A stretch of DNA of 64,000 bases from Acidimicrobiia bacterium (GTDB lineage Bacteria; Actinomycetota; Acidimicrobiia; Spongiisociales; UBA11373): positions 32,511 through 96,510 of the forward strand of contig JAJCYA010000002.1 in NCBI GenBank assembly GCA_029263095.1, read 5' to 3'. This document shows positions 21,625-37,190 of the stretch, piece by piece. Position 1 is the stretch's first letter, and every line of letters starts with the position of its first letter. Position numbers and translations under genes: made by a program. Below the pieces are notes generated by a model. That model did not search any database. It had not been told where the DNA came from and saw only the letters and a program-made list of their open reading frames with translations.

Positions 21625-21747
21625 CCCGCCGCCGGACGACGCTTCACCTTCGCCGCTCTCACAGGGGATCTGTCAGGTACCCGACAGAACGCTCCTAATC
21701 ACGTCGCCTGCTGGTTGATCTCAGGGAACGATCAAAGGCGTCGACAG

Positions 21748-22845
21748 ATGACAACGGACCTCGATCCTCAACCGGATGCGGTACAGGAGGAGTTGTGGCC
21801 GACTGAGGGTGGGCCCTCCACCACCAGGTCCTCTTCCCCATCGAGTTGGGTGGCAGGTATCACGGTGCTCGCCATCGCCGTTTTGGCGATCGGGTTCGCC
21901 ATTGGCCGATCGCTTGCCACCTCTACCCCGCCCGTCGTCGCTTCTTCCTCGCGAGGACCGATCGTCGTCACAGCTCCCGCTTCGCAACAAGCTGTTGACC
22001 CAGGCAACATCGCTGCGGTTGCGGCGTTGCTGAGTCCGTCGGTGGTCCAACTCGAATCCGACACGGGTCTCGGCTCGGGCGTGATCTTCGATTCTTCCGG
22101 TCTGATTCTCACGGCGGCGCATGTTCTCGATGGCGCCGACACGATCCGGGTGCGTTTGGCGGATGGGCGGTTGCTCCCAGGCACCGTGGTCGGAACGCAC
22201 CCCACCACCGATGTTGGTGTCGTATCCATCGAAGGTGATGGATACCCGACCGCGGTGCTGGGCTACGGAACAGCTGCGAGCGTCGGTGAGACGGCCATCG
22301 CCCTCGGCAGCCCGTTCGGGTTCGAGCAGACAGTGACGGCCGGCATCGTGAGCGCCAACGGCCGCAACATCAACGGCGTGCCGATGGTGCAGACCGATGC
22401 AGCCATCAACCCCGGGAACTCAGGCGGACCCCTCGTCAACGGTGTCGGGCATGTCATCGGCATCAACGACGTGATCTTCTCTCAGGGCGGGGGCAACGAC
22501 GGAATCGGGTTTGCGATCGCCATCGACATTGCGATCGTCGTGGCCGAACAGATCGTCGCCGGCGGCGACGTGCAGCTGGCAGCTCTCGGAGTGGCAACGA
22601 TCCCCAACACGAGTGGTGACGGTGGTGCCATCGTGCGTGAGGTCTTTGATGGCTCGGCCGCCAGCGACGCCGGATTCCAGATCGGCGACCGGATAGTCAA
22701 AGTGGACGGAAGCTCCGTGTTCGATCCCGGCGACCTTTTTGCAGAAGTTGTCACCCATCGACCGGGTGAGATCGTGGAGATCGAATTCTCGCGGGGCGGA
22801 CAATCGCAACTGATCTCGGTCGCTCTGGACGGTATCGAGCGTTAG
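21748..22845 (+). CDS. HtrA/DegP-family serine protease with a C-terminal PDZ domain, membrane-anchored
   Basis: Catalytic triad context TAAHVL...D...GNSGGPL, then a PDZ domain (GAIVREVFDGSAASDAGFQIGDRIVKVDG). Confidence 0.85.
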   Translation: MTTDLDPQPDAVQEELWPTEGGPSTTRSSSPSSWVAGITVLAIAVLAIGFAIGRSLATSTPPVVASSSRGPIVVTAPASQQAVDPGNIAAVAALLSPSVVQLESDTGLGSGVIFDSSGLILTAAHVLDGADTIRVRLADGRLLPGTVVGTHPTTDVGVVSIEGDGYPTAVLGYGTAASVGETAIALGSPFGFEQTVTAGIVSANGRNINGVPMVQTDAAINPGNSGGPLVNGVGHVIGINDVIFSQGGGNDGIGFAIAIDIAIVVAEQIVAGGDVQLAALGVATIPNTSGDGGAIVREVFDGSAASDAGFQIGDRIVKVDGSSVFDPGDLFAEVVTHRPGEIVEIEFSRGGQSQLISVALDGIER

Positions 22846-23230: not shown

Positions 23231-24843
23231 CAGCCCACGCCGCCGTAGCGGATGCCCGTCAGTTCGGCCATGTCGTTCTTGAAGGTAGTGAGGTCTGCGG
23301 GAGCGAACTCGCTCAGGTGGCGATGGCCGGTCGCGCGAGCCAAGACCTGCATCATCTCGACGGTGGCCGAGAAGAATCTGGCCAGTCGCTCCGCGGCGGT
23401 ATCCACCGGCAGTCGCTGTCGCAGGTCCTCTCTCTGTGTAGCGATTCCGACCGGGCAGTTGTTGGTGTGGCACGCCCGCATGCCGATGCAGCCGATGGCC
23501 TGCATCGCAGAGTTGGAGACTGCCACCGCGTCGGCTCCCAGCGCCATCGCCTTGACGAAGTCGGCAGCGATCCGAAGCCCGCCGGCGATCACGAGCGTCA
23601 CATCGCCGGCGTCGGAAGCATCTAGATGCCTCCTGGCGCGAGCAAGCGCCGGAATGGTCGGTACCGAGATGTTGTCGCGGAAGAGGATCGGCGCCGCACC
23701 TGTCCCACCCCCCCGACCGTCGAGAATCACGTAGTCGACGCCCGCAGCCAATGCAGCGTCGAGATCCAATTCGATTTGCTGAGCCGACAGTTTGAAGCCG
23801 ACCGGAATCCCACCCGTCCTCTCCCGCACCTCGGCGGCAAACTCGGCGAACTGCTCCGGGTGGGTCCACTCCGGAAACCGAGGAGGTGAAATTGCAGGCG
23901 AACCCGGCTCGAGGCCGCGCACCTCCGCTATCTCTCCGACGACCTTGTCTCCGGGAAGATGGCCACCCGTTCCCGTCTTGGCCCCTTGACCTCCCTTGAA
24001 GTGCATTGCCTGCGCCTTCTCGACTTTGTCCCACGAGAAGCCGAACCGACCCGAGGCAAGCTCGTAGAGGTAGCGGTCGTTGGCCTCCTGCTCGGCAGGC
24101 AACATGCCGCCCTCGCCTGAGCAGATAGCGGTTCCCGCCTGCTGGGCACCCCGGGCCAGAGAGATCTTCGCCTCACGCGACAACGCACCAAAACTCATGT
24201 CGGACACAAACAGAGGGATGTCGAGGTGGAGCGGCTTGTCGGCCCTGGGTCCGATCACGACGTCGGTGCCTACGGCCTCGTCCTCCAGGAGAGGTGGCGT
24301 TGCCAGCTGCGCTGTCACGAGCTGGATGTCCTCCCATTTGGGCAGGCTGTCGCGCGGCACACCCATCGCCGCTACTTCTCCGTGGTGTCCGGTGAGGGTC
24401 AGGCCGTTGCTTGCCAGCTGACGGATCTGGCGGACGAATGGCTCCTCGGGTGTGCCATGCGGATCCTGATAGGCCCCCTGGTAGGCATCGCGGTCGTACG
24501 GCTGCGGGTTGTCCTTGGCCCACTCCCCGATCTCATCGGCGTCCACCCACACGCCGTCGTCCTCCACCCACGAGTGGAAGCGATGCAACCGCTCATCGTT
24601 CTGGTACTGAGAGACGCCCGTCCGGTACCGGTAGTCCCAGTTGTGGACGCCGCAGATGAGGTTCTCGCCCCGAATCGCGCCGTCGGCCAGATAGGCGCCG
24701 CGGTGGAGGCACCTGCCGTACAGCACTGAGACGGCGTCGGCATCCTTCCAACGGACCAGCACCAGGTCGACCCCCGCCACGAGGGCACTCGTAGGTTTGA
24801 GCTGTGGGAGCTCTGACCATGTCGCGATCCGTTGCGGCTGCAT
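23230..24843 (-). CDS. Glutamate-synthase-related FMN-binding protein (GltB domain-2 family) with an N-terminal Rieske [2Fe-2S] domain
   Basis: CLHRGAYLADG...CGVHNWDY (Rieske CxH...CxxH), followed by GEGG...GGTGAAP and GADAVAVSN motifs of GltS-like TIM barrels. Confidence 0.8.
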   Translation of the reverse strand: MQPQRIATWSELPQLKPTSALVAGVDLVLVRWKDADAVSVLYGRCLHRGAYLADGAIRGENLICGVHNWDYRYRTGVSQYQNDERLHRFHSWVEDDGVWVDADEIGEWAKDNPQPYDRDAYQGAYQDPHGTPEEPFVRQIRQLASNGLTLTGHHGEVAAMGVPRDSLPKWEDIQLVTAQLATPPLLEDEAVGTDVVIGPRADKPLHLDIPLFVSDMSFGALSREAKISLARGAQQAGTAICSGEGGMLPAEQEANDRYLYELASGRFGFSWDKVEKAQAMHFKGGQGAKTGTGGHLPGDKVVGEIAEVRGLEPGSPAISPPRFPEWTHPEQFAEFAAEVRERTGGIPVGFKLSAQQIELDLDAALAAGVDYVILDGRGGGTGAAPILFRDNISVPTIPALARARRHLDASDAGDVTLVIAGGLRIAADFVKAMALGADAVAVSNSAMQAIGCIGMRACHTNNCPVGIATQREDLRQRLPVDTAAERLARFFSATVEMMQVLARATGHRHLSEFAPADLTTFKNDMAELTGIRYGGVG

Positions 24844-24918
24844 CCTGCTCCTCCGACGGTGAGGTTCGCCACCGTATCCACGACGGGCAACGGACTCCGT
24901 CAGCGACGAATTCCCGAT

Positions 24919-26217
24919 TCAGGGAGTCGGCTCCGGAGCGGTCGCCGGAGTGAGGTCCTCCCAGGAGTCGGTGGCGGCGTCATAGATCAAGGTGACTCCT
25001 GCGTTGAAGATCACGATCCGACCGTCTCCGGTGGGCGCCGCGGCGTGGACCCCGATCCAAGCCGGAGCCGGTGTCCGCGGTTCCCACTCGGCGGTCTGTG
25101 GATCAAACGCCCAGACTTCGTCGGAAGAGGCAAATGCCTTCGTGGTACCGCTCTCCGTGATCGTGGTCTGGTACCAAGCGCCGCCTATCACGAATACCAA
25201 GCCGGTACTGGGCTCGTACACCATCTGATGTAGCCAACGGGGCTCAGGTGTGGCGACACCGAATGTCTCTACTTCGGTCCAGACCAGGTCCGATGCGCTG
25301 AAGCTCCACATGGTGCCATCGCCAGCGGTGCTCTCTGTCTGGCCTCCCCAGAGGTAGATGAGTTCTGTGCCCGGGTCGTAGACCATCTGGTGACACGCCC
25401 TGGCTTCGGGCGCAGATTCTGTTTCGACGGCTTCCCATACGTTGTCGGACGCTTCATACACCCATGTGTCATCCAGCAGCTCCGCCCGATTGCGCGATAC
25501 GAATTCTCCAATCCCGCCGAGAAGCACCAGTCGATCCGACGTGGGGTCGTAGGCGATGGCATGGCCCCACCGGTCGGTGGGCGGAGCCGTCGGGGACAAC
25601 CACGACCACGCGCCGGAGGCAACATCGAGCGACCACATGTCAACCTCCGTATCGCGTACCAGTGCGAACCGGGAGCATCCCGACACGGGATCAGAACCGC
25701 CGCCCACCACGACCACCTCGCCCAGCGAGTCGACATAGGCGATGGCATGTCCCGCCCTCTGAGGGGGCACCAACGTGGCATCGAGCATTCGCCACCGATT
25801 CTCCGAGGCGCTGTAGAGCCAGGTATCGGCCAACACTTGGCCTCCCGTCCATGAGCCCCCACTTGAACCGCCGAACATCACAACGGTCTCCGAGTCGGGG
25901 TCGAACTCCATCTTGCCTGCGATCAACTCAGGCGGATACTGGGTCGGTGTTGTCCCGGTCGTGGGCGTCGGATCTGTGGTTACGGGGGTCCTCGGTTCGG
26001 GGACCGGATCCGGTGTGGCGGACTCGGAGGATGCCAAGGTGTCACTGGTGGCCACCGTTGTAGAAGGCTCCCCTCCGGTGACGGCGATGTAGCCGGCGAC
26101 GCCTATTCCGATCACAAACAGTGTGATTGTCACGGGCCAGAGGGCGGATCTGGACGTCTCATCGAGAACGGGCTCGGAGAGGAGAGCAAGGAGATCGCTG
26201 CGGTCGCTGTCCGCCAC
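24919..26217 (-). CDS. Membrane-anchored Kelch-repeat beta-propeller protein (432 aa)
   Basis: An N-terminal TM and Thr/Pro linker, then repeated GG..W units (MFGGSSGG..W, VVGGGSD, LLGGIGE, LWGGQTE, VIGGAWY) typical of Kelch blades. Confidence 0.7.
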   Translation of the reverse strand: MADSDRSDLLALLSEPVLDETSRSALWPVTITLFVIGIGVAGYIAVTGGEPSTTVATSDTLASSESATPDPVPEPRTPVTTDPTPTTGTTPTQYPPELIAGKMEFDPDSETVVMFGGSSGGSWTGGQVLADTWLYSASENRWRMLDATLVPPQRAGHAIAYVDSLGEVVVVGGGSDPVSGCSRFALVRDTEVDMWSLDVASGAWSWLSPTAPPTDRWGHAIAYDPTSDRLVLLGGIGEFVSRNRAELLDDTWVYEASDNVWEAVETESAPEARACHQMVYDPGTELIYLWGGQTESTAGDGTMWSFSASDLVWTEVETFGVATPEPRWLHQMVYEPSTGLVFVIGGAWYQTTITESGTTKAFASSDEVWAFDPQTAEWEPRTPAPAWIGVHAAAPTGDGRIVIFNAGVTLIYDAATDSWEDLTPATAPEPTP

Positions 26218-26287
26218 ACGTCGATTCTATGACCCGACAGCCAGAAAGTGGGCGGGCGACCCGTAAGTCGGACAGAGCCGGAAGCGC

Positions 26288-26875
26288 TTGGATGTCATAA
26301 CGGATCGTGAGTCGAGCGAGTATCAGGTAGTGAGTGAGCCAGCCGATCGTGTCGGGGAGGGCGTAGCGACCCCCGTTGTCGGGGGCGTCGAACCGTTTGA
26401 AGCGTTCTACAGACGCGAATACGACCGCGCCGTACGGCTCGCCTACGTGCTGTCTGGGAGCCAATGGGGAGCCGAGGACCTGGTACAAGACGCTTTCGTC
26501 TCGGCGCACCGAAACTGGCAGACCATTGGGAGCTACGAGAGTCCGGCCGGATGGGTGCGGCGCGTGATCGCGAACCGATCCGTTTCCAGATACCGGAGAA
26601 GGGCTGCCGAAGGGCGCGCTCTGTTGAAGATGGCGGCGAGTTCTAGGAGGGTGCTTCCCGATCTCAGTCCGGAGACGGAGGAGGTCTGGGATGCGGTGCG
26701 CCGACTCCCCCGCCGGCAAGCCCAAGTGGTGGCGTTGACCTACTTGGACGGGTTGTCACTACAGGAGGTGGCCGATGTCCTGGACGTAGCGGTTCCCACG
26801 GTCGGCACCCATCTTCAACGTGGCCGGAAGGCTTTGTCTCACATCCTGGCGATCGCAGAGGAGGTCGAATCATGA
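26288..26875 (+). CDS. ECF (sigma-70 family, group IV) RNA polymerase sigma factor
   Basis: Region 2 (FEAFYRREYDRAVRLAYVLSGSQWGAEDLVQDAF) and region 4 (ALTYLDGLSLQEVADVLDVAVPTVGTHLQRGRKAL). Listed from TTG at 26288; the true start is possibly downstream. Confidence 0.8.
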   Translation: MDVITDRESSEYQVVSEPADRVGEGVATPVVGGVEPFEAFYRREYDRAVRLAYVLSGSQWGAEDLVQDAFVSAHRNWQTIGSYESPAGWVRRVIANRSVSRYRRRAAEGRALLKMAASSRRVLPDLSPETEEVWDAVRRLPRRQAQVVALTYLDGLSLQEVADVLDVAVPTVGTHLQRGRKALSHILAIAEEVES

Positions 26876-27681
26876 AGCTCGACACCCGGCTCCAAGCTGC
26901 AGCGGACGAAACCCGGGACCAGTTGAGGGGGCTCACGCCACCGCCGCTCAGGTCGTCGAATCGACGCCTCGCGGCAGTTGCGGGCATCGCCGTCGCAGCG
27001 GCTCTCGTGGTAACGGTGATTGTCTGGAGCGGGATCTCTCCGCTCAGCCGTCCGGCCGCAGAGGGGATCTATCTCGCTCCGGGGGAGATTCTCCTCGCAG
27101 AGGATCCGACCGTCGTGCAAGGAGCGCCCGCCGTCGAGGCTCGATTCGATACTGCCGAGTTGGGTGAGGAAGCTCCGCTCGGTACCGTGACGGATGTCGC
27201 GGGATTGGTCTCTCGGATCGGCGAGATCCATGAGGGTGACGTCTTTAGGATCACGGTGATTGGTATCACCGGCGACGGTGCGACGGCGGCACTCGTATTG
27301 ACCGACACGGCCAACGGCGTGGATCCAAGCGGGCGAGTCCTACGGCTGCTCTGCATTTGGATCGACGAGATATCGGCATGCGGTGGGGCTCCTGCTGAGA
27401 GCCTTGCCGGCCAGTCCGGAGGGTTCCCGGGCGGTGAACTGGCGCCGTCGCTCGCGCTTAGCTTCGATCATCCCGGTCCAAGTGAGTTGGGGTGGGGATC
27501 GCTACCAGAAGGTACATCCGTGGTTGTCCTTGGTGTGAACGGCATCTCCCGATGGCAGCTGCCCGTCGGCGGAGTAGCAGTCTTCGACACCGATCTGCTT
27601 GACGGAGACGAGTTCGTCATGACCGCGCTGGACGCAGACGGCAACACGATCGTGCGTCAATCCTTGGTCGCCGGGGGCTGA
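26872..27681 (+). CDS. Putative membrane-spanning anti-sigma factor (single TM), ATGA-coupled to the sigma gene
   Basis: A short cytoplasmic N-terminus, TM AAVAGIAVAAALVVTVIVW and an extracytoplasmic domain. It has no zinc (HxxxCxxC) motif, so the call is positional. Confidence 0.5.
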   Translation: MKLDTRLQAAADETRDQLRGLTPPPLRSSNRRLAAVAGIAVAAALVVTVIVWSGISPLSRPAAEGIYLAPGEILLAEDPTVVQGAPAVEARFDTAELGEEAPLGTVTDVAGLVSRIGEIHEGDVFRITVIGITGDGATAALVLTDTANGVDPSGRVLRLLCIWIDEISACGGAPAESLAGQSGGFPGGELAPSLALSFDHPGPSELGWGSLPEGTSVVVLGVNGISRWQLPVGGVAVFDTDLLDGDEFVMTALDADGNTIVRQSLVAGG

Positions 27682-27696
27682 CCGGCTGCTGGACTT

Positions 27697-28965
27697 CTAC
27701 AGATCGTTTCTGACGAGATCCTCGAGAGTCTCACGGCGGACAACCAACCGGGCGTCACCGGCCCGAGCGAAGACGACGGCGGGACGCAGCATTTTGTTGT
27801 AGTTGGAGCCCATCGAGTGCCCGTATGCCCCGGTCACAGGCGTCGCCAGCAGGTCCCCTACCGCTAGATCGCTCGGCACTTGAGCATCCCACGCCAGCAC
27901 GTCGCCGGATTCGCAGTGCTTGCCCACCAGCCGAATCGGCTTGGACCGCTCACCGGCCACCGACCGTGGCAGAAACGTCTCGTAGCCGCTGCCGTAGAGG
28001 ACCGGTCGCGGATTGTCGCTCATCCCCCCATCGACGGCGACATATGTCCTGATGCCCGGGATCTCCTTGATGCTGCCCACCGTGTAGAGCGTCACCGCTC
28101 CTGAGGCCACTATCGCCCGGCCCGGCTCTGCCCAGATTTGTGATTCGAGACCCAAGGATTCGGCGGCCGCTCGCAGTGTTGCGGCCCACTCAGCGATCGT
28201 GGGAGCAGACTCGCCCTCGACATAGGCCACTCCGAGACCCCCGCCGACCACCAATTCCGGCAAGTCGAAGGGGGCCGCAAAGTCGGCGACCACATGAAGC
28301 GCCTCGGCAAACGACTCCACTCGGAAGACTTGGGAGCCAATGTGGGTGTGTATGCCTCGCACATCGAACGCCGACGACTCCAGGGCTCGTCGGATGGCGC
28401 GTTCGGCGTCTCCATTGGCCACGGTGAATCCGAACTTGGAGTCATCCTGGCCTGTTGTCACGTACTCATGGGTGTGGGCATCGACCCCCGGCGCCACCCT
28501 GAGGAACACAGTAGGGACCGGGTGCCCATCCTCTACCAGACGCTCCACTCGGTCCATCTCGTCGAAGCCGTCCACTACCAGCCGCCCAACACCCTGCTCG
28601 AGGGCCATTTCGAGTTCGCGCTGCGACTTGTTGTTGCCGTGATAGACGAGTCGCTCCGGCGGTACTCCGGCACTCACTGCGACGAACGCTTCACCCGCGG
28701 TGGAAACATCTATCCGCATCCCCTCCTCGTGGGCCAGGCGGGCCATCGCCAGGCAGAGAAAGGCCTTGGATGCGTACACCGCCCCGTCACCAAAGGCGGT
28801 CACGGCTTGGCGGCACCGCTCCCGAACATGATCCTCGTCGTACACGAACAGGGGGGTACCGAACTGTGCGGCAAGTTCGATGATGTCGCATCCGCCGATC
28901 GTCAGCTGACCAGCCTCACCGAAGGCCGCGTTGTCGGGCAGCAGGCTCGTCGGTAGGGCGGACAT
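27697..28965 (-). CDS. lysA: Diaminopimelate decarboxylase
   Basis: A PLP fold-type III decarboxylase with YASKAF (PLP Lys), HTHIGSQ, GGGLGV and CESGD motifs. The ORF extends to 29013 and the start is probably MSALPTSLLP. Confidence 0.9.
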   Translation of the reverse strand: MSALPTSLLPDNAAFGEAGQLTIGGCDIIELAAQFGTPLFVYDEDHVRERCRQAVTAFGDGAVYASKAFLCLAMARLAHEEGMRIDVSTAGEAFVAVSAGVPPERLVYHGNNKSQRELEMALEQGVGRLVVDGFDEMDRVERLVEDGHPVPTVFLRVAPGVDAHTHEYVTTGQDDSKFGFTVANGDAERAIRRALESSAFDVRGIHTHIGSQVFRVESFAEALHVVADFAAPFDLPELVVGGGLGVAYVEGESAPTIAEWAATLRAAAESLGLESQIWAEPGRAIVASGAVTLYTVGSIKEIPGIRTYVAVDGGMSDNPRPVLYGSGYETFLPRSVAGERSKPIRLVGKHCESGDVLAWDAQVPSDLAVGDLLATPVTGAYGHSMGSNYNKMLRPAVVFARAGDARLVVRRETLEDLVRNDL

Positions 28966-29019
28966 GGCCGGCGATGGTACCGGCCCCAGGATTCTCGAAG
29001 GGAAGGCCGACACGGCGAT

Positions 29020-29946
29020 CTATCCGGCGATCCCCTCCACAAGCACGTCGTCGATGAGCATCACATCGAAGTCGTCGCCGGGGATAATCATCGGGCCCCA
29101 CCACGCGGGGGCGGGGGCAATGCTGCCCGACCAAAGCAGGGCGAACCCACCGTTGACGTAGACCTCCACCGAACTGCCCGATACCACCAGGTGAAGCTCA
29201 TTCCAGGCATCGATCGTGAATCCGTCCGGAATCGGCGCCGACTCCTCTTCCGCGAACTCGGTGCCGCTCCATCGTTTGACCCAGACGTTTCCGTCGGCGG
29301 TGTCCACGTACGCCATCACGTAGAAGGCCAGACCGTCGGCCGGGTCCTCCGACAACACAACCGCTCCGTACTTGGCATCCGGCTGGTCCGGAAGCGGATA
29401 GAGCTGGAAAGTGATCTCGGCATCTGGGTACGCGCTGGGGTACATGACCGGTAGGACGAAATCGGCTCCCTTGCCCACGACCCGCAACCTGGCAGCATCA
29501 TCGACCGTCGCTTCCATGAATTCGCTTGGGAAGAGCGGGAACGCCGTCGTCGCCCCATCAAAGGAATCCGTGAGCAGCGGGGGAATCGTCGAAGTAGTGG
29601 TCGTCGTCGACGTCGTGGTGGAGCTGGTCGTCGTCGTGCTGCTGTTGGTGCTCGACGTGCCGGCGGTGGTGGTGGTGGTGGATGGCAGAGAGGTCGTCGG
29701 TGCGTCCGTCGTGGAGGTGGATTCGAGGGCGAACGTGGTGGACGAACCGCCCGGAAGCGTCACCAGCGGCTGACCCGGGTCCAGGGATGCACTTGAGTCG
29801 TCTCCGCCGAACCAGCCGAGACCAAAACCAGCGACCACCAGGGCGATGGCCGCACCCCCGGAATACAAGGCCCACGGAGGGAGGCTGTTGGAGCCTACGG
29901 TTGGACTTGGGCGTGGAGGCGCTGGAGGCGGGGGTGGTTGCGTCAT
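29020..29946 (-). CDS. Hypothetical membrane-anchored protein with a Pro-rich N-terminus, TM, Ser/Thr-rich linker and a C-terminal beta-sandwich-like domain
   Basis: MTQPPPPPAPPRPSP, then a TM, then STTTTTAGTSSTNSSTTTTSSTTTSTTTTTST, then a ~190-aa C-terminal domain. Confidence 0.5.
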   Translation of the reverse strand: MTQPPPPPAPPRPSPTVGSNSLPPWALYSGGAAIALVVAGFGLGWFGGDDSSASLDPGQPLVTLPGGSSTTFALESTSTTDAPTTSLPSTTTTTAGTSSTNSSTTTTSSTTTSTTTTTSTIPPLLTDSFDGATTAFPLFPSEFMEATVDDAARLRVVGKGADFVLPVMYPSAYPDAEITFQLYPLPDQPDAKYGAVVLSEDPADGLAFYVMAYVDTADGNVWVKRWSGTEFAEEESAPIPDGFTIDAWNELHLVVSGSSVEVYVNGGFALLWSGSIAPAPAWWGPMIIPGDDFDVMLIDDVLVEGIAG

Positions 29947-30125
29947 TCAAATCCAGGCTACCGACTGCCCCGCCAAACGAGCACCGATCCTCGCGACGTC
30001 TCCGGGACGGGGATGCTCTCGAGTCCGGCAGTCGCAGAGCAAGTCGGTCCGGCCATGGAGGAGAGCTCGCAGTCGGGTTCGCTCACCGACGCGATCGGCC
30101 CATACACTCCGGTGCATGATGAAGG

Positions 30126-31078
30126 CGGCAGTCAGCACCAAGTACGGCCCACCGGAAGTCGTGAGTCTCGAAGACGTCGCCAAACCGACGCCCGGAGACG
30201 ACGAGCTGCTGATCAAGGTGCGCGCCACCACCGTCAATCGGACGGACTGCGGATACCGCGCAGGCAGACGATTGCCTATCAGGCTCTTTAGCGGGCTCCG
30301 TCGGCCGAAGGTCGCCATCCTCGGCACCGAGTATTCCGGAGAGGTCGTGGCCGTAGGCGCAGACGTCACAGGCTTCGCACTGGGTGACCGGGTGTGCGGG
30401 TACTGCGAGGGCACTTTCGGCGCCCACGCCGAGTACATGACCATCCAAGCCGAGCGTCTGATCGCACGTATCCCCACAGATTGGACCTTCGAGGAGGCTG
30501 CTCCCAGTACCGAGGGCTCCCACTACGCCCTCGGCATGCTGCGGGGTGCTGAAGTCGAGAGTGGGCAGGATGTCCTCATCTACGGTGCGACCGGTGCCAT
30601 CGGATCGGCTGCCGTCCAACTCGCCAAGAGCCTCGGTGCCAACGTGACTGCGGTCTGTGGTACCCAGCATGTGGCGCTCGTCGAGCGTCTTGGTGCCGAT
30701 CGAGTCGTCGACCACGAGACCACCGACTTCACGAGGGACTCACAGAAGTACGACCTGGTGCTCGATGCGGTCGGCAAGAGTTCCTTCCGGCGCTGCCGGC
30801 GACTGTTGAAGCCCCGCGGTATCTACATCTCGTCGGAGGTCGGGCTCTTCTGGCACGGCCCGCTTCTGGCGCTCATCACTCCCCTATTCCGACGCAGGAA
30901 GCTCATGTTCGTGATCCCGAAGCGTGATCCGGAGGGGACCAAGTATCTCAAAGCGCTCATCGAATCGGGAGAGTTCAAGCCGGTCGTCGACAGGCTGTAC
31001 CCGCTGGACCAGATCGTCGAGGCGTATCGCTACGTCGAAACGGGTGAGAAGGTCGGCAACGTCGTGATCACCGTCTAG
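30126..31078 (+). CDS. Zinc-independent MDR-superfamily NAD(P)H:quinone oxidoreductase / enoyl reductase-like protein
   Basis: MMKAAVSTKYGPPEVVSLEDV...GATGAIGSAAVQLAK (Rossmann GxxGxxG) and ...GKVVI-like C-terminus. Confidence 0.85.
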
Positions 31079-31128
31079 CGAAGACGGAAGGACGGCGTCT
31101 GGCCAACAGACCTCGGCGACGACCGTGA

Positions 31129-32106
31129 TCAGCCTGTTGTGCCGAGGCCGCCCTCTGTGTCCTCTACGTCCCAGCCGTCATCCAACAGATCGTGGACCTC
31201 CGGCTCCGCCTTGTCTCCGGGGGCACGCGGGCGTCCACCCGGTCCGGGAGGCGGTACCCGAGGCTCGGGTGGTGGTGGTGGTGGTGGTGGTGAGGCAGGG
31301 CCAGATGTCCCCACGAACACGCCTTTGGCGACGGCAATGCCGATCGCAGCCACTACCACTACGCCGACGATTACTGTGGTCGACACTCCCCCGTCGTCCT
31401 CATCGAACGGCTGCGAGGCGTCCGCTCCCTGGGTGGCATCCGTCGAGGGACCGCCGGTTGCGGGATCATCCCCACGGGGAGGTGGGGGCACGTTCGCCCC
31501 GGATTCGGGCTCATCCCCCAAGGCCGCGACGATCCTGCCGTCGATCGCACGCGCCAGCGCTTCGGACCTAGCGCCTAGGTCGGCCGCCGACAACGCGGGA
31601 CGACCCTCGTAGGGACCCAGGAACGTCTTGACGTGAACGTAGAGGTCGGCTCTGCGGAATGCGACGACATACTCCTCGACCGGACCGGTCTCAGCGGCGT
31701 CGACTCCGGCGAGTCCCTCGTCACCGATGTCGATCGGGCCACCGGCAACTTGCGAGTAGTCGTCGGCTAGGAGGCCATCAACGTCACCCCACTGAGGCGA
31801 CGCAATCCAGACGTCGAAGAGGTGGACCGGAGTCTGGCCATCGCTGCTCGGGGTGCCCAGTTGGTAGGCGGCAACGCAGTCCGTGAAGTCTCGACGCTGC
31901 TCCTGCCCGATCTCGGCGCCCCCCACCTCCTGCGGCAGGAACTCACATAGGTTTTCCCGCACAACGTCGACCCCGGCCCCGGCAACAGGGGCAAGGAGAA
32001 CGAGGAGGGTCGCGGAGACAAGGAGTGACGCCCGAACACGCAACGACTTCCAGATCGACGGAGAAGCCCCGGGGCGTTGGTGGCGCCGCCGGACTTCAGA
32101 CCTCAT
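31129..32106 (-). CDS. Hypothetical secreted protein with a C-terminal TM and a poly-Pro cytoplasmic tail
   Basis: Signal peptide (LLVSATLLVLLAPVAGAG), then a globular domain, then TM (VIVGVVVVAAIGIAVA), then PPPPPPPPEPRVPPPGPGG. Confidence 0.5.
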   Translation of the reverse strand: MRSEVRRRHQRPGASPSIWKSLRVRASLLVSATLLVLLAPVAGAGVDVVRENLCEFLPQEVGGAEIGQEQRRDFTDCVAAYQLGTPSSDGQTPVHLFDVWIASPQWGDVDGLLADDYSQVAGGPIDIGDEGLAGVDAAETGPVEEYVVAFRRADLYVHVKTFLGPYEGRPALSAADLGARSEALARAIDGRIVAALGDEPESGANVPPPPRGDDPATGGPSTDATQGADASQPFDEDDGGVSTTVIVGVVVVAAIGIAVAKGVFVGTSGPASPPPPPPPPEPRVPPPGPGGRPRAPGDKAEPEVHDLLDDGWDVEDTEGGLGTTG

Positions 32107-32255
32107 GCCCGAGTACCTCGGGTCCGTTCATGTCCTCCATCAGCACCCCCTATCAGGGCATTCAGCCTACGCCGGGGCGGTCGGAAGCGTGGGCTGAATG
32201 CAACGCGGTGTACGCCCTTGGGGGAGCGAAGAATCGTCCGAGGCACGATGACGTG

Positions 32256-33575
32256 TCAGCCGTTTGGAGGTGAGACGGTGACCCAATCGACTCCGACGAT
32301 CACCACCCGATCTCCCCATTTCACGACGTCGCGACCTGGGACGAAATACTCCCCGTCGGCTTTGTCGAGGGTCCACTGGGCACCATCGGTCGACGTCCAG
32401 ATCGCCTCGGGAAACTGGCTCCCTGCCAGGGCGATGAAGCGGCTCCCCAACCAGACCACACCGTTTGGCAAGACGAGAGAGCCGACCGGTACGGGCGGCA
32501 ACTCGACCCGGTTCCACTCCTGCCCATTCTCACTCCACCAGGCGACCGCGAATCCTTCACTCGGCGTGCTGTCCGCGTTGGGGCGCTCGGAGCCCACCGC
32601 GACGAACCGGCCTCCGCCGGCAGCGAGGTCTTCGATTTGAATCCATCCACCTTCTGGTGCGTCGGCGCCTCCTCTTGCCCAGGTCACCCCATCGTCGCTC
32701 ACCCACGAGAGGAGTTGCGCTTGTCGGTTGCCTCTGAGTCCGACTGCAACCACGACGTCGCCAAGCGTCGCAGCTCCCGCAAGTCTGAGTTCCGGCCCGG
32801 GGGGTTGATCCTCGCTGAACGTCGTCCACGGTCCGGATCCGAAGAAGCTGACGGCGGTGAAGTCGGAGTCATCGGTGCGGTAGGGCTCCCACCACTGGCC
32901 GTTGGCGAACAGATGAACTCGCCCGTTTTCGCCGGTGATGTAGCCGAGATCCATGATGCGGAAGTTCTTCGGACCATCCAGGCGCTGATCGATCCCCGTG
33001 TCGTCAGGACCCTGGAGCAGGATCGCTCCATCGACGCCGCTGGTCACGAGCCACAGGTCGGCTCCGGCACCTTGGCTGCTCACACCCTGCTGAGGAGGAG
33101 CTGCGAACACGCCGTAGAGAGTGTCATCGACGCTCCCCAGCACCATCTGGTGGCGGATAGCGCCCGCACTCGGGAGCGTGCTCTCGGTAGGAAGTCCAAG
33201 TCCCACCAGGTCGACGCGTTCCCAAGTCGAGCCGTCCAACGTGAACGCCAGGATGAACTCGTTCTCTTCATCACGTCCGGCCAGCCACAGGCGGTCGCCG
33301 GCAGCCGCTGCGCTGGCCGGCTGGAAATCGATCTGACTCGTCGTCCACCCTTCATTCGGCAGCGTCGTCGTAGTCGCGGCGGCCACCGTCGTCGTGGAGG
33401 AGACCACCGCTGTCGTCGTCACCGTTGGCGGAGGATGCGGGGCGGTCGACTCGTCTGGGCCGGAAGTCCCGAGGGATGCAGTATCGGCTCCGCCGCATGC
33501 CGCCACAGCGATCGAGATCGTCGCAAGGAGCCCACTGAGCACGGACGGTGTCGAGTGAGGTACGCGACTGCTCAT
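32256..33575 (-). CDS. Secreted lipoprotein with a BNR/sialidase-like beta-propeller (439 aa)
   Basis: Lipobox IAVAACGG, a Thr-rich linker, then repeated S-x-D-x-G-x-T/W-like units (SDDGVTW, STDGAQW, SENGQEW, TLDGSTW). Confidence 0.6.
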   Translation of the reverse strand: MSSRVPHSTPSVLSGLLATISIAVAACGGADTASLGTSGPDESTAPHPPPTVTTTAVVSSTTTVAAATTTTLPNEGWTTSQIDFQPASAAAAGDRLWLAGRDEENEFILAFTLDGSTWERVDLVGLGLPTESTLPSAGAIRHQMVLGSVDDTLYGVFAAPPQQGVSSQGAGADLWLVTSGVDGAILLQGPDDTGIDQRLDGPKNFRIMDLGYITGENGRVHLFANGQWWEPYRTDDSDFTAVSFFGSGPWTTFSEDQPPGPELRLAGAATLGDVVVAVGLRGNRQAQLLSWVSDDGVTWARGGADAPEGGWIQIEDLAAGGGRFVAVGSERPNADSTPSEGFAVAWWSENGQEWNRVELPPVPVGSLVLPNGVVWLGSRFIALAGSQFPEAIWTSTDGAQWTLDKADGEYFVPGRDVVKWGDRVVIVGVDWVTVSPPNG

Positions 33576-33799
33576 GATCGGCTGAGAGAGTACTCAGGCG
33601 ACAGCGCTCTGGGCGGATGAGCGGTCTCTCTCGGCTAGCGACCAGGTAGCCGATCTCGCCGATCAGGGACCGGGAAGGCGGAGGGGCGTCGCGTGAAGCG
33701 CTTCGGCCACTGCCATTCCAAAGGCCGTGTCACAGATTCGGGCACCTCGTGCGAGTTACCCCATGACACGCCGAGCCTGGCAGGAGAGCATGGAATGAT

Positions 33800-34330
33800 G
33801 TGGCGATCGAGATGACAGGCGAAGCAGTGGCGATCGAGAGCACCTCGATGAGCGAGGACTTCCAAGAGTTCTACTCCAGGGAGCGCCGGGCTGTGGTGGG
33901 ACTGGCATACGTGCTGTCCGGGAGCCGGTCGGGAGCGGAGGACCTCGCTCAGGAGGCGTTCATCGCTGCGTTTCGCAGATGGGACGAGATCTCGGGATAC
34001 GACGACCCGGGCGCATGGGTGCGGCGGGTCGCAGCGAACAGAGCAACGTCGTGGATCCGAAGGCGTGCCGCTGAGACGAGAGCGCTCCTCCGTATCAAGG
34101 GGTCCGATTTCACGATGCCGGTGCTTGATGCAGAAGCCGACCTCATCTGGCGAGAGGTGCGGCGCCTACCGACGAGACAGGCCCAGACGATCGCGCTTCG
34201 GTACCTGGACGGACAAGAGGTTTCTGAGATCGCCGAAACGCTCCAGTGCTCGGTGAACACCGTCCACACGCACCTTCGGAGGGCAAAGGAGAGGCTCGCC
34301 CGCCGATTCGAGGACAAGGAGATCTCGTGA
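33800..34330 (+). CDS. ECF sigma factor, paralogue of the one at 26288
   Basis: FQEFYSRERRAVVGLAYVLSGSRSGAEDLAQEAF...ALRYLDGQEVSEIAETLQCSVNTVHTHLRRAKERL. Motifs align colinearly with the first sigma. Confidence 0.8.
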   Translation: MAIEMTGEAVAIESTSMSEDFQEFYSRERRAVVGLAYVLSGSRSGAEDLAQEAFIAAFRRWDEISGYDDPGAWVRRVAANRATSWIRRRAAETRALLRIKGSDFTMPVLDAEADLIWREVRRLPTRQAQTIALRYLDGQEVSEIAETLQCSVNTVHTHLRRAKERLARRFEDKEIS

Positions 34331-35394
34331 AGACGATCGACGAGAGATTGGAATATGCGGCTACTGAAGCCCGGCAAGCTGTGGCGCACCTTCCGTCGCG
34401 GACCGCCAAGTTGCCGGGCCGACCGAACCGTGTCGCCCGACACACAGCCCAACTCGTCGCGCTGGTCGCGCTGATCGTCGTGGCAGTCGGCGGAAGCTTG
34501 GTTCTCTTTGACGGGGACCCCGATGTGGCGAGCGGAGTCGCCGAATTCCCTCGCCTCGCGTTGGATGTGGACGCTGTTGGGGCCGACCTCTCCTTGGTCT
34601 TCGCCGAGGACGGAGCGACGTCGCCCCAACCTGCTCAACCGAATCTGCTGGACGTATACGGGGATCCCTCCGCCGGTATCTCCTCGGGTCGGATCTTTGT
34701 TGTGACGGACTTCGACGGCTCGGACTATTTGCGCAACGAACCGTTCAACTCTCCAGGTGTGGTTCCGGTTTCGGTGCCGACAGGGGTTGCCTACCTCCAC
34801 GACGAGGGTCTCGCCTCGGTAATCCTTTGGCAGATCGAAGAGGATCATGGTCTCGCAGTCACGATCCAGGGAGTCGGTATAAACACCGCAACGCTCCTCG
34901 ACGTGCTCGCAGGAATCCAGTACGACGAGACCGGCGCGGAGGTCGATTCCCTGCCGCCTGGCTTCACCCTGCTCTACTCCGGCCCCACGCGTACTGAGGG
35001 CGAACGCAAGGTGTATATCCACTGGGCGACGCCGCTAGGCGATGGCCCGCAGGCCACAGCCACGTTGGAGCTTCATCAGGGGGCCGAGGCCCCCTTGGAG
35101 AGGGGCAGGTACACCATCACGCCTGACGCCGGTATCTCCGCGATCAGCGAGACCCAAGTGCTCGCGAAGCCGGCCCTGCGAATGGAGCTGGGCGATGTGG
35201 TGGTGTTCCAGTGGCTCCAAAGCCCAACCGTCTACGCGCGGCTCATCGTGCTGGGTTTCTCCGATGCAGATGGAGTTGCCGCCGCCCTCCGCGAAGTGGA
35301 CGACGCCACCTGGGAGCAGATGTTCAGGAACGAGCGACCCACCGATCCCGCCTCGACAGAGACAACGGCCGCGCCGACGACGTCGTCGCCGTAA
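34327..35394 (+). CDS. Putative membrane anti-sigma factor (single TM), GTGA-coupled to the sigma gene
   Basis: GTG overlaps the sigma stop. TM LVALVALIVVAVGGSLVLF and a large extracytoplasmic domain. Confidence 0.5.
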   Translation: MKTIDERLEYAATEARQAVAHLPSRTAKLPGRPNRVARHTAQLVALVALIVVAVGGSLVLFDGDPDVASGVAEFPRLALDVDAVGADLSLVFAEDGATSPQPAQPNLLDVYGDPSAGISSGRIFVVTDFDGSDYLRNEPFNSPGVVPVSVPTGVAYLHDEGLASVILWQIEEDHGLAVTIQGVGINTATLLDVLAGIQYDETGAEVDSLPPGFTLLYSGPTRTEGERKVYIHWATPLGDGPQATATLELHQGAEAPLERGRYTITPDAGISAISETQVLAKPALRMELGDVVVFQWLQSPTVYARLIVLGFSDADGVAAALREVDDATWEQMFRNERPTDPASTETTAAPTTSSP

Positions 35395-35507
35395 CTGAAC
35401 CTCCGGCCACTGGTGCTCAACTAGAACCACGCTCTATCGCGAGGCCGCCATAGCGAACCGCCCGGCCTCTCAAGTCTCTGACCATCACAGAAGAGTGATT
35501 GCAATCG

Positions 35508-37190
35508 TCAGCTGGCGCGCCACACGTTGAGGATCGGGTGGTTGTAGCCGGTCTCTCCGACCCGATTGAGGGGGTATCCGAAGACCTCGTAGGGGTGTCG
35601 AATGTCGAAGTGGGAGCCTTCGAATAGGGCGGCGCCGAAACCTTGGAGCTGACCCGGTGTGAAGACCTCGAGTGCGGCCGCCAGAGCACCTTCGGCCATC
35701 TCGTAGGCTCCAGCAAAGTCCGAGGGGCAGATGTCGGCCTCGCAGAAGCCATCTCCGGTCTGGGCGCCGATCGGCCCCCCCGTCATGAAGAGCATCACCG
35801 GAGTGGCGTTGTCGATCTCGGTGGCGAGGGCTCGTACCGCCCGGCCGAAGATCTGCCGCAGGTCGGGTCCGACGGATTCGGGAGCACCGACACCCGCGAT
35901 GACGCCTTCGAACGCGGACCAGTGCGGCCTCCGATCTGCGGGCGGCACCTGGCCGGCGACGCTGAGGAACCCTGCTTGCCAGAGCCGGAACCCTGCCCGG
36001 CGCCACTCAGCTATCCGCACCTGTTCGTAGTCCGAAATGGCGGATTCCATCCGAAGGCATGCGGTCTGCTCGGCCGGGTCCGGATAGCAGTAGGCGGTGA
36101 GGGCCGTCTCCGCGAACCAGGGTTGTGCATACCCGATCACGACCTCCTTCTCGCGCAGCAGGTACGCGTCGTCCCAGACGGTGAGCAGGGTGTCCATGAT
36201 GTCGAGAACGGCCAGCCGGTTGAATGCCTGGAGCACCGCGTCGGGGTGTACTCCGGCGATCTCGTCCCAAGGTATCTCGACTCGCTCTGAGACGAACGAA
36301 TCGAGCGTTGCCGGTTCGGCGGCGTCCATAACCGTCTGGAGCTGCTCGGGGCTCATGCCTAGGGAGGTCATCAACACGTCGCCTCGTCGCACCAGCGAAG
36401 GATCGTCGCCGCACGACGGCACTTGGGAACAGTCTTCGCCGTTGACGACGAAGGTCCCGTCCGGCAGCCACTCGACGCTCGACACCTCACGACTCACCGT
36501 CACGATCCAGGGGGGCGACAGCACCTCTCCACCAAACGTTGTGATGTATCCGTCGCGCTGTGGTCCCACCTCAGAGTCGCCCAGCGAGTAGGGACCTTCG
36601 CCGAGAGCGTCAACGATGTTGAAGAACAACTTGGGGAGCTCCGTCTGAGGCTGCTGCAATCGCAATGAGCCATCCGGGGTGCGACAGGCTGCATACAACT
36701 CTCCTCCGACGAGGGCGTTTGAGTTACCGGCGGCTGCCTTATCAGGATCCAGGTAGGTGTCGAGGTCGAGTTCGAGAGGCTCGAGCCCAGCACAGTCGCC
36801 TGCCTCGTCGAAGGCGACTACGCACATCGTCTGTACCCCATTCTCGCCGGGAGTGCCGCGGTAGCGAAAGCGCAGACAGGAGATCCCGGAGTCGAGCGCG
36901 GTGACTTCGCCCTCGCCGACCACAACCGGCTCACCCTCGAAGTCGATGACCTCCAGCAGCTCCCCGAAACCCGCCACCGATCTGCTGTCTCCGACGGGAA
37001 CGAACACATGGGACGCAAGCCGCGCGGGAGCCCCGTCTGGGGTCAATCCATCTCCAGATGTCGTCGCCGCACCCGTGGCACCGGGGCCGCAGGCCGAGAC
37101 GACCAACGCTCCGACCAGCAGCAAGCTGGGTGTTGGGCGTCGACCAACACCCAGCCCCGCGGGCTCCGTCCGCGCGCCCATACGCCGCAT
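35508..37190 (-). CDS. Hypothetical secreted lipoprotein (560 aa)
   Basis: LLLVGALVVSACGPG lipobox. It is Cys-rich, with no recognisable catalytic motif. Confidence 0.55.
   Translation of the reverse strand: MRRMGARTEPAGLGVGRRPTPSLLLVGALVVSACGPGATGAATTSGDGLTPDGAPARLASHVFVPVGDSRSVAGFGELLEVIDFEGEPVVVGEGEVTALDSGISCLRFRYRGTPGENGVQTMCVVAFDEAGDCAGLEPLELDLDTYLDPDKAAAGNSNALVGGELYAACRTPDGSLRLQQPQTELPKLFFNIVDALGEGPYSLGDSEVGPQRDGYITTFGGEVLSPPWIVTVSREVSSVEWLPDGTFVVNGEDCSQVPSCGDDPSLVRRGDVLMTSLGMSPEQLQTVMDAAEPATLDSFVSERVEIPWDEIAGVHPDAVLQAFNRLAVLDIMDTLLTVWDDAYLLREKEVVIGYAQPWFAETALTAYCYPDPAEQTACLRMESAISDYEQVRIAEWRRAGFRLWQAGFLSVAGQVPPADRRPHWSAFEGVIAGVGAPESVGPDLRQIFGRAVRALATEIDNATPVMLFMTGGPIGAQTGDGFCEADICPSDFAGAYEMAEGALAAALEVFTPGQLQGFGAALFEGSHFDIRHPYEVFGYPLNRVGETGYNHPILNVWRAS

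Follow-up and report, generated by a model that had tools for sequence, protein, structure and literature searches.

We analyzed a stretch of 64,000 nucleotides of DNA (in the following, the window) from an Acidimicrobiia bacterium (assembly GCA_029263095.1, contig JAJCYA010000002.1), which carries two bicistronic operons. In each of them, a gene encoding an extracytoplasmic function (ECF) sigma factor (sigma1 and sigma2, respectively) is followed by an overlapping gene encoding a single-pass membrane protein (asf1 and asf2, respectively), which is a candidate anti-sigma factor. An initial annotation of the locus described six open reading frames (ORFs), arranged as two paralogous modules, each with a beta-propeller protein gene divergent from a pair of sigma factor and anti-sigma factor. 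All six ORFs were recovered at identical coordinates. The G+C content of the window amounts to 60–65% throughout, and the two operons each end facing convergent genes. The operons and their predicted promoters consist of the following features:

26293..26321, plus strand: predicted autoregulatory ECF promoter of operon 1; -35 element TGTCAT (26293-26298), 17-nt spacer, -10 element GCGAGT (26316-26321)
26330..26875, plus strand: ECF sigma factor 1 (sigma1); 181 amino acids (aa) from the revised start GTG 26330, the longest ORF beginning at TTG 26288 (195 aa)
26872..27681, plus strand: asf1, candidate anti-sigma factor, a single-pass membrane protein coupled to sigma1; helix at aa 3-18, transmembrane (TM) helix at aa 32-54, beta-rich outside domain at aa ~70-266
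33728..33756, plus strand: predicted autoregulatory ECF promoter of operon 2; -35 element TGTCAC (33728-33733), 17-nt spacer, -10 element GCGAGT (33751-33756)
33800..34330, plus strand: ECF sigma factor 2 (sigma2); 176 aa, start GTG 33800, alternative start ATG 33812
34327..35394, plus strand: asf2, candidate anti-sigma factor, a single-pass membrane protein coupled to sigma2; 355 aa, helix at ~aa 4-20, TM helix at ~aa 35-61, followed by an outside domain

Two paralogous sigma factors

A scan against Pfam identifies the domains Sigma70_r2 and Sigma70_r4_2 in both sigma1 (E 7.8e-12 and 1.3e-15, respectively) and sigma2 (E 6.3e-13 and 1.3e-14, respectively), with no match to region 3 in either protein and with lengths of 176–195 aa. 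Both exceed the cut-off of the general sigma70-ECF model TIGR02937 (66.3 and 77 bits, as compared to 42.9). By all features examined, sigma1 and sigma2 are ECF (group 4) sigma factors. Alignment of the two displays 51% sequence identity over 163 aa (E 2e-53), with the motifs listed in the initial annotation in colinear order, which confirms the paralogy claimed there and identifies them as members of the same ECF lineage. A tblastn search of the 64-kb window for a third sigma copy gave no match. Both sigma factors resemble their orthologues in other genomes far more than they resemble each other, and the duplication is hence an old one.

The best NCBIfam model for both proteins is TIGR02983 (SigE family, an actinobacterial model), with 121.1 and 120.9 bits, respectively, which is in line with the expectation that the two do not belong to distant ECF groups. 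However, both miss the TIGR02983 cut-off of 141.55 bits, and are therefore not filed as SigE-family members; all other specific models score 77 bits or less. The name "SigE family" is also the one that NCBI gives to relatives of these sigma factors.

Predicted promoters and translation starts

The regions upstream of sigma orthologues were aligned, which yields the consensus GGATGTCATAAC-N14-GCGAGTAT for the sigma1 clade and TGTCACAGA-N14-GCGAGTTAC for the sigma2 clade. Both contain the bipartite motif TGTCAY-N17-GCGAGT, which is found without mismatch in front of both operons of the window. Exact copies of this motif are present in 16 related loci, each directly upstream of a sigma gene. The motif is kept before the sigma1 orthologues of loci L082/83, L086/87, L089/90 and L091/92 (with one mismatch in the -35 element in L084/85 and L088), and before the sigma2 orthologues of loci L089/90, L096/97 and L098/99. 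This placement is characteristic of ECF promoters under autoregulation, as predicted here for both operons. No third site with one mismatch or less is present on either strand of the 64 kb.

In more distant members of the family, the -35 element reads (A/C)GGTAAACC, followed by N~15 and a -10 element CGAGTwAC (i.e., CGAGT(A/T)AC) or CGTGTGA. Loci with a -35 element of the GGTAAACC type are L003, L005, L007-L009, L014, L016, L019, L020, L022, L026, L027, L030, L036, L039 and L041; the variant GGTAAACC-N~15-CGAGTwAC was not found in the window. The -35 specificity thus appears to have diverged within this sigma family, with the -10 element unchanged.

The extension of sigma1 to TTG 26288 covers the -35 element of its own predicted promoter, and TTG 26288 can hence not be the start of sigma1. 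The in-frame GTG 26330 is located 8 nt past the predicted -10 element of operon 1, and the first in-frame start is found 5–8 nt past the -10 element in most loci of the sigma1 clade. GTG 26330 is the likely start of sigma1, in which case the sigma1 mRNA would probably be leaderless. This data suggests that genes of the sigma1 type are systematically over-extended by gene callers, and that their transcripts are leaderless.

The leader of sigma2 comprises ~43 nt. An ATG located 6 nt past the -10 element of sigma2 opens an 11-codon ORF (33763-33798), the stop codon of which (TGA, 33796-33798) ends one base before the sigma2 start GTG 33800. In the orthologue of locus L096, the equivalent ATG is the in-frame start of the sigma gene. 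The sigma2 copy of the window may have a frameshifted leader, or its translation may proceed by termination and reinitiation.

A stringent scan for the sigma-70 consensus in both divergent intergenic regions returned no housekeeping promoter, no convincing plus-strand terminator was found after either operon, and Rfam lists no RNA family in the range 24000-36000. In several related loci (L089, L090, L092 and L088), a repeat of ~45 nt (…CCGACGGTGGAWAAGACCGACCC…TGGAGGCT…) occurs in two to three copies, 100-300 nt upstream of sigma1 or sigma2 orthologues; the CCGACGGTGGAWAAGACCGACCC/TGGAGGCT repeat is absent from the window.

Coupled membrane partners

The genes sigma1 and asf1 overlap by 4 nt (tcATGAag, 26872-26875), and so do sigma2 and asf2 (tcGTGAag, 34327-34330). 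Shine-Dalgarno sequences (GAGGAGG and AAGGAG, respectively) are located 6–7 nt upstream of the asf1 and asf2 start codons. The translational coupling by 4-nt overlaps, as described in the initial annotation, is thereby confirmed. The partner proteins are oriented with the N-terminus in the cytoplasm (N-in). Their cytoplasmic segments comprise ~31 aa (asf1) and ~35 aa (asf2) with one predicted helix each, while the outside domains are large (~215 and ~295 aa, respectively). No cysteine is present in the cytoplasmic part of either protein, and both lack a zinc motif, as had been noted before. The likeness between asf1 and asf2 is limited to the first ~20 residues and to the general architecture.

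Neither asf1 nor asf2 displays a match in Pfam or NCBIfam. With no domain match, a cytoplasmic part of ~31–35 aa and no cysteine, both fall outside the definition of class I or zinc-binding anti-sigma (ZAS) proteins. A profile built from 24 partner N-termini retrieved no anti-sigma factor from the PDB, but TM-helix noise only. Comparison of the same 24 N-termini with Pfam yields a match to CnrY for one of them (E 0.013), the segment being too short for sequence methods.

An AlphaFold2 model of asf1, based on 83 relatives, has a predicted local distance difference test score (pLDDT) of 85.8 and a predicted template modelling score (pTM) of 0.73. It displays a helix at residues 3-18 and the TM helix at 32-54, with a flexible linker in between, as well as an outside domain that is folded. 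No PDB entry was matched at E <= 1e-3 in a Foldseek comparison of this model; over the C-terminal ~90 residues, there is no more than a resemblance to sandwiches of the FN3/Ig type. The corresponding model of asf2, computed from an alignment of four sequences, is unusable (pLDDT 33). Only three homologues of asf2 were found (50-64% identity), each of them following a sigma2 orthologue.

Conservation of the two-gene operon

A search for relatives of sigma1 returned 971 sequences at E <= 1e-10, the nearest of which are found in metagenomic contigs; those with a name are metagenome-assembled genomes (MAGs) of Acidimicrobiia or Actinomycetota. A scan of one genome per species added 80 loci, 43 of which hold sigma relatives with at least 40% identity, nearly all of them in MAGs of Acidimicrobiia or Actinomycetota. 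The number of independent loci with close orthologues is ~10, i.e., six of the sigma1 clade (62-81% identity; L082/83, L084/85, L086/87, L088, L089/90, L091/92) and four of the sigma2 clade (60-82% identity; L089/90, L091, L096/97, L098-100).

A coupled ORF at position +1, overlapping the sigma gene by 1 to 14 nt, is present in nearly all of ~50 related loci. The proteins encoded by these ORFs begin with a conserved motif, M-x-(L/I)-D-x-R-x-R-x-A-A-x-x-h-R, followed by a proline-rich basic linker, a hydrophobic helix that starts at residue 31-53, and an extracytoplasmic region. The latter ranges from 174 to 655 aa, with almost no similarity between loci. In L088, L091 and L084, the gene after the sigma1 orthologue is an orthologue of asf1 (39-61% identity), and in L089, L096 and L098, the gene after the sigma2 orthologue is one of asf2 (50-64% identity). 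Each pair is therefore found with its own orthologues and coupled to them, in agreement with the prediction that homologous pairs would be adjacent in other genomes. In L089/L090, both operons are arranged in tandem (sigma2-asf2-sigma1), with no propeller gene.

Pairwise similarity of the sigma factors correlates with similarity of the first 28 residues of their partners (Spearman 0.44, Mantel p <= 0.001), as compared to 0.25 for the outside domain. Restricted to distant pairs, the correlation amounts to 0.23 for the N-terminus (p 1e-8) versus 0.07 for the outside domain (not significant). Such a co-variation would be expected with the N-terminal helix as the sigma-binding element and the outside domain as an exchangeable sensor. 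Across the loci compared, the conserved unit is the two-gene operon, and not a module of three genes. The initial proposal of two paralogous modules holds for the sigma genes, but it does not extend to the propellers (see below), nor to the downstream proteins beyond the limited likeness of their N-termini and architecture.

Proposed mechanism

Based on this dataset, we hypothesize that the window holds two anciently duplicated bicistronic operons, each encoding an ECF (group 4) sigma factor and its coupled, cognate N-in single-pass membrane protein, and that both work by the standard ECF mechanism. We regard this interpretation as probable. Sigma binding, the mode of release, the signal and the regulon are modelled here on the general ECF paradigm. 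The N-terminal amphipathic helix of the partner (~16 residues), held at the membrane, would sequester its sigma factor. A signal perceived at the variable extracytoplasmic domain would lead to release of the sigma factor, either via regulated proteolysis or via a conformational change. The free sigma factor would then direct RNA polymerase to promoters of the type TGTCAY-N17-GCGAGT, including that of its own operon, which would result in positive feedback. Since the core promoters of the paralogues are almost identical, it is plausible that there is cross-talk between the operons or that they serve one regulon with two inputs, and two different sensors may feed overlapping outputs.

Several points weigh against this interpretation. 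The cytoplasmic part of the partners (~31–35 aa) is shorter than a class I domain, and neither Pfam nor PDB searches gave a significant match to an anti-sigma factor. Binding of the partner to the sigma factor is proposed by analogy. The SigE family of Streptomyces includes, according to the ECF classification 2.0 (PMC7826278), members under two-component control and not under control of an anti-sigma factor. A position weight matrix (PWM) of the promoter motif scores 33.5 bits at operon 1 and 32.2 bits at operon 2, with 10 bits or less in the rest of the window and a maximum of 17.8 in 20 shuffled sequences, but the training set of the PWM included both window sites, and these scores are partly circular. 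Independent support for the promoters exists nevertheless, because they are conserved in other loci. Finally, the scan for target promoters covered only the 64 kb of the window.

Alternatively, the downstream membrane proteins might be co-expressed envelope effectors or positive regulators rather than anti-sigma factors, with sigma activity being set mainly by transcription or by a distant regulator. The lack of a recognizable anti-sigma domain and the short cytoplasmic segment would be consistent with such a role, and Streptomyces SigE, after which the closest NCBIfam model is named, is under two-component transcriptional control (PMC7826278). However, only the short cytoplasmic N-terminus is conserved across the ~50 loci. 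It varies together with the sigma factor, and the outside domains are freely exchanged, as would be expected of a sigma-binding module and not of an effector. In addition, tight translational coupling holds both proteins in a fixed ratio, and no gene for a two-component system or kinase adjoins either operon. Hence, we consider a role of asf1 and asf2 as effectors or positive regulators unlikely, and retain the interpretation as cognate anti-sigma factors.

The outside domain of asf1

The outside domain of asf1 defines a family of at least 83 clusters among 1.84 billion representative sequences, for which there is no Pfam entry. Its members (relatives P0128-P0209) have in common the motifs PGExLLxxDPLVVxGAxxPEPxFDTSxLGxE ... 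WQRPxxGVAVF ... ALDxxG, and nearly all of them display the layout of a short N-terminus followed by a TM helix. The domain is present in tandem double copies in P0155 and P0160. Fusions with other domains were found among the 83 clusters, namely with thioredoxin-like domains (Thioredoxin_2, three cases), Kelch repeats (two cases), SH3_3 (one case) and PD40 (one case). The order of domains in the two Kelch fusions is Kelch, asf1-type domain and thioredoxin in P0178, and asf1-type domain followed by Kelch in P0187.

P0125 is a natural fusion gene (L098:843-2468, L099:1108-2733, L100:510-2135), in which an asf2-like part (62% identity) is joined at its C-terminus to the outside domain of an asf1-like protein (58% identity). 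The gene overlaps the preceding sigma2 orthologue (82% identity) by 4 nt. P0125 is present on four contigs from at least three samples, which excludes an assembly chimera, and it appears to have arisen by a deletion across a tandem sigma2-asf2-sigma1-asf1 array, an arrangement as in L089/L090.

Propeller genes next to the operons

Both operons have a divergently transcribed gene for an envelope protein immediately upstream:

24919..26217, minus strand: Kelch1, membrane-anchored Kelch beta-propeller protein (Pfam Kelch), divergent neighbour of operon 1
32256..33575, minus strand: prop2, lipoprotein and probable propeller with five Asp-box-like repeats (lipobox VAAC), divergent neighbour of operon 2

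The description of Kelch1 as a Kelch-repeat membrane protein is fully supported, as it matches PF24681 (E 1.5e-31, 109.8 bits, cut-off 50) and Kelch_4 (E 2.6e-27, 94.9 bits, cut-off 21.6), and as five to six GG...W repeats are visible in its sequence; the propeller is preceded by a membrane helix at the N-terminus and by a linker rich in Thr and Pro. The sequence TAGAAT, located 6 nt upstream of the Kelch1 GTG, was noted by eye as a candidate promoter element. As for prop2, which had been described as a BNR-like propeller lipoprotein, the lipobox and five motifs of the type [ST]x[DN]GxxW are present, the latter also being kept in its single homologue P0122, but the match to BNR_2 stays below threshold (E 0.005, 16.6 bits as compared to a cut-off of 31.4). 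Kelch1 and prop2 have the same kind of low-complexity Thr/Pro linkers.

Given its layout of a short N-terminus, TM helix, linker and outside domain, which resembles that of the partner proteins, Kelch1 might act as a co-sensor or as a ligand-presenting partner of the asf1 outside domain, though not as a transcriptional target. The two Kelch fusions in the asf1 outside-domain family (two of 83 cluster representatives, in two different orders) are the only evidence that hints at such a link between Kelch1 and asf1. However, no Kelch gene is present near the asf1 orthologues of L088, L091/92 and L084/85, BLASTP detects no close similarity of the fused Kelch domains to Kelch1, and fusions with other domains such as Thioredoxin_2, SH3_3 and PD40 are as frequent. 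An association of this kind appears very unlikely. The related idea that Kelch1 itself is a degenerate anti-sigma-like protein was rejected, as its N-terminus lacks the MxLDxR motif and the gene is transcribed divergently.

ECF sigma factors often control neighbouring genes. The initial annotation proposed two modules of three genes, each made up of a propeller gene and the divergent pair, with the propeller as the likely first target in a duplicated envelope-sensing regulon. Kelch1 and prop2 are not homologous (best E 1.3). A tblastn search of the 80 genome loci with sigma relatives detected no homologue of either, nor of asf1 or asf2. Homologues of Kelch1 or prop2 are also absent from the ~10 independent orthologous loci and from the 43 more distant ones, and no Kelch or BNR Pfam domain was found among the called genes of these loci. 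Which genes lie upstream of the sigma orthologues, and in which direction they are transcribed, varies between loci. Among 5.8 billion proteins, prop2 has a single homologue, P0122 (43% identity), the neighbours of which are an acyltransferase and unrelated genes and include no sigma gene; for Kelch1, a metagenome set of the JGI holds only two short distant matches, which are uninformative on context. Neither propeller gene is preceded, on the minus strand, by a site of the promoter motif with three mismatches or less, and searches with variable spacers likewise gave none. With unrelated propellers, no conserved adjacency, tandem operons lacking a propeller in L089/L090, and no motif upstream, the claim of a propeller as module member and likely first target, on which the asserted novelty rested, is not supported and appears highly improbable.

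The region 24.9-37.2 kb is generally rich in envelope proteins, which makes chance adjacency easier, and an envelope protein beside an operon is therefore unremarkable. Kelch1 and prop2 look like envelope proteins that adjoin the operons by chance and that are located outside the sigma system. Three further envelope proteins of this region, none of them with a confident family assignment, are encoded on the minus strand. The first (29020-29946) is anchored in the membrane and has a faint LamG-like domain as well as a long linker rich in Ser and Thr, the second (31129-32106) is secreted and has a Pro-rich tail and an anchor at the C-terminus, and the third (35508-37190) is a lipoprotein of 560 aa. 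An HtrA/DegP-type serine protease (Trypsin_2 and PDZ domains) is encoded at 21715-22845 (plus strand), ~3.4 kb upstream of operon 1. In other systems, site-1 cleavage of anti-sigma factors is the task of such proteases.

Comparison with known anti-sigma systems

The two operons resemble the general ECF paradigm, as represented by SigW-RsiW and RpoE-RseA, in several respects. The sigma factors consist of sigma2 and sigma4 domains only, the partner genes are located directly downstream and are coupled, the partners have one TM helix with the N-terminus inside and a putative sensor outside, and a conserved bipartite promoter precedes the operons. Class I anti-sigma domains comprise ~80-90 aa in three or four helices. 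Unlike these, the partners of the window have a cytoplasmic part of ~31–35 aa with one predicted helix. They also differ from class I/ZAS proteins (zf-HC2, RskA; HxxxCxxC) in having neither a zinc motif nor a Pfam anti-sigma match, and their mode of binding and release would have to follow by analogy. SigE of S. coelicolor is under control of CseBC and not of an anti-sigma factor, whereas the sigma factors described here are paired with candidate anti-sigma factors.

Another parallel might be found in class II (CnrY, NepR) and class III (RsbN with BldN) anti-sigma factors, which employ a very short segment for binding; in the partners of the window, such a sigma-binding function is only predicted. 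CnrY and RsbN are membrane proteins encoded beside their sigma factor. However, CnrY, NepR and RsbN use two or three helices, as compared to the one predicted helix of the window partners, and no significant sequence similarity was found. CnrY moreover has almost no outside domain, unlike the partner family with its large and highly variable outside domains. The resemblance to CnrY, NepR and RsbN would be a functional one only, and this comparison is speculation.

According to the ECF classification 2.0, putative anti-sigma factors are typically encoded at position +1 and usually have one TM helix (82 groups), and most of them match no Pfam domain of characterized anti-sigma factors (PMC7826278). 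The same source reports that ECF222, ECF51, ECF38 and ECF39 of an actinobacterial clade have one type of putative anti-sigma factor in common (PMC7826278). The novelty that the initial annotation claimed for a duplicated envelope-sensing regulon with these partners is too strongly worded; a +1 membrane protein with no known anti-sigma Pfam domain is usual in ECF groups (PMC7826278).

Beyond the general paradigm, we tentatively put forward a more specific possibility, which we consider rather doubtful at present. The partners may represent a minimal anti-sigma module, i.e., an N-terminal amphipathic helix of ~16 residues (MxLDxRxRxAAxxhR) and a short basic linker, which would act as a portable sigma-binding "plug" combined with interchangeable sensors of Acidimicrobiia. 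These sensors would include the hitherto undescribed outside domain of ~200 aa with two subdomains (at least 83 clusters; no PDB fold match at E <= 1e-3), which in relatives occurs in tandem, fused to Kelch or thioredoxin domains, and once fused across two adjacent operons. Such a module would be shorter than any structurally characterized class of anti-sigma factors.

Implications

In the first place, this analysis adds two more pairs of ECF sigma factor and putative anti-sigma factor from an ECF-rich and poorly studied class of actinobacteria, which is a routine finding. It provides a testable promoter consensus (TGTCAY-N17-GCGAGT) and a corrected start of sigma1, the transcript of which is probably leaderless. 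It further shows clearly that the conserved portion of the partner proteins is a very short N-terminal helix, behind which the putative sensor domains are shuffled. Residual interest lies in this short helix, together with the uncharacterized family of shuffled sensor domains that includes two Kelch fusions. If it were true that a single helix suffices to hold a sigma factor, this would amount to a new structural class of anti-sigma factor, and it would provide a compact and possibly orthogonal part for synthetic circuits.

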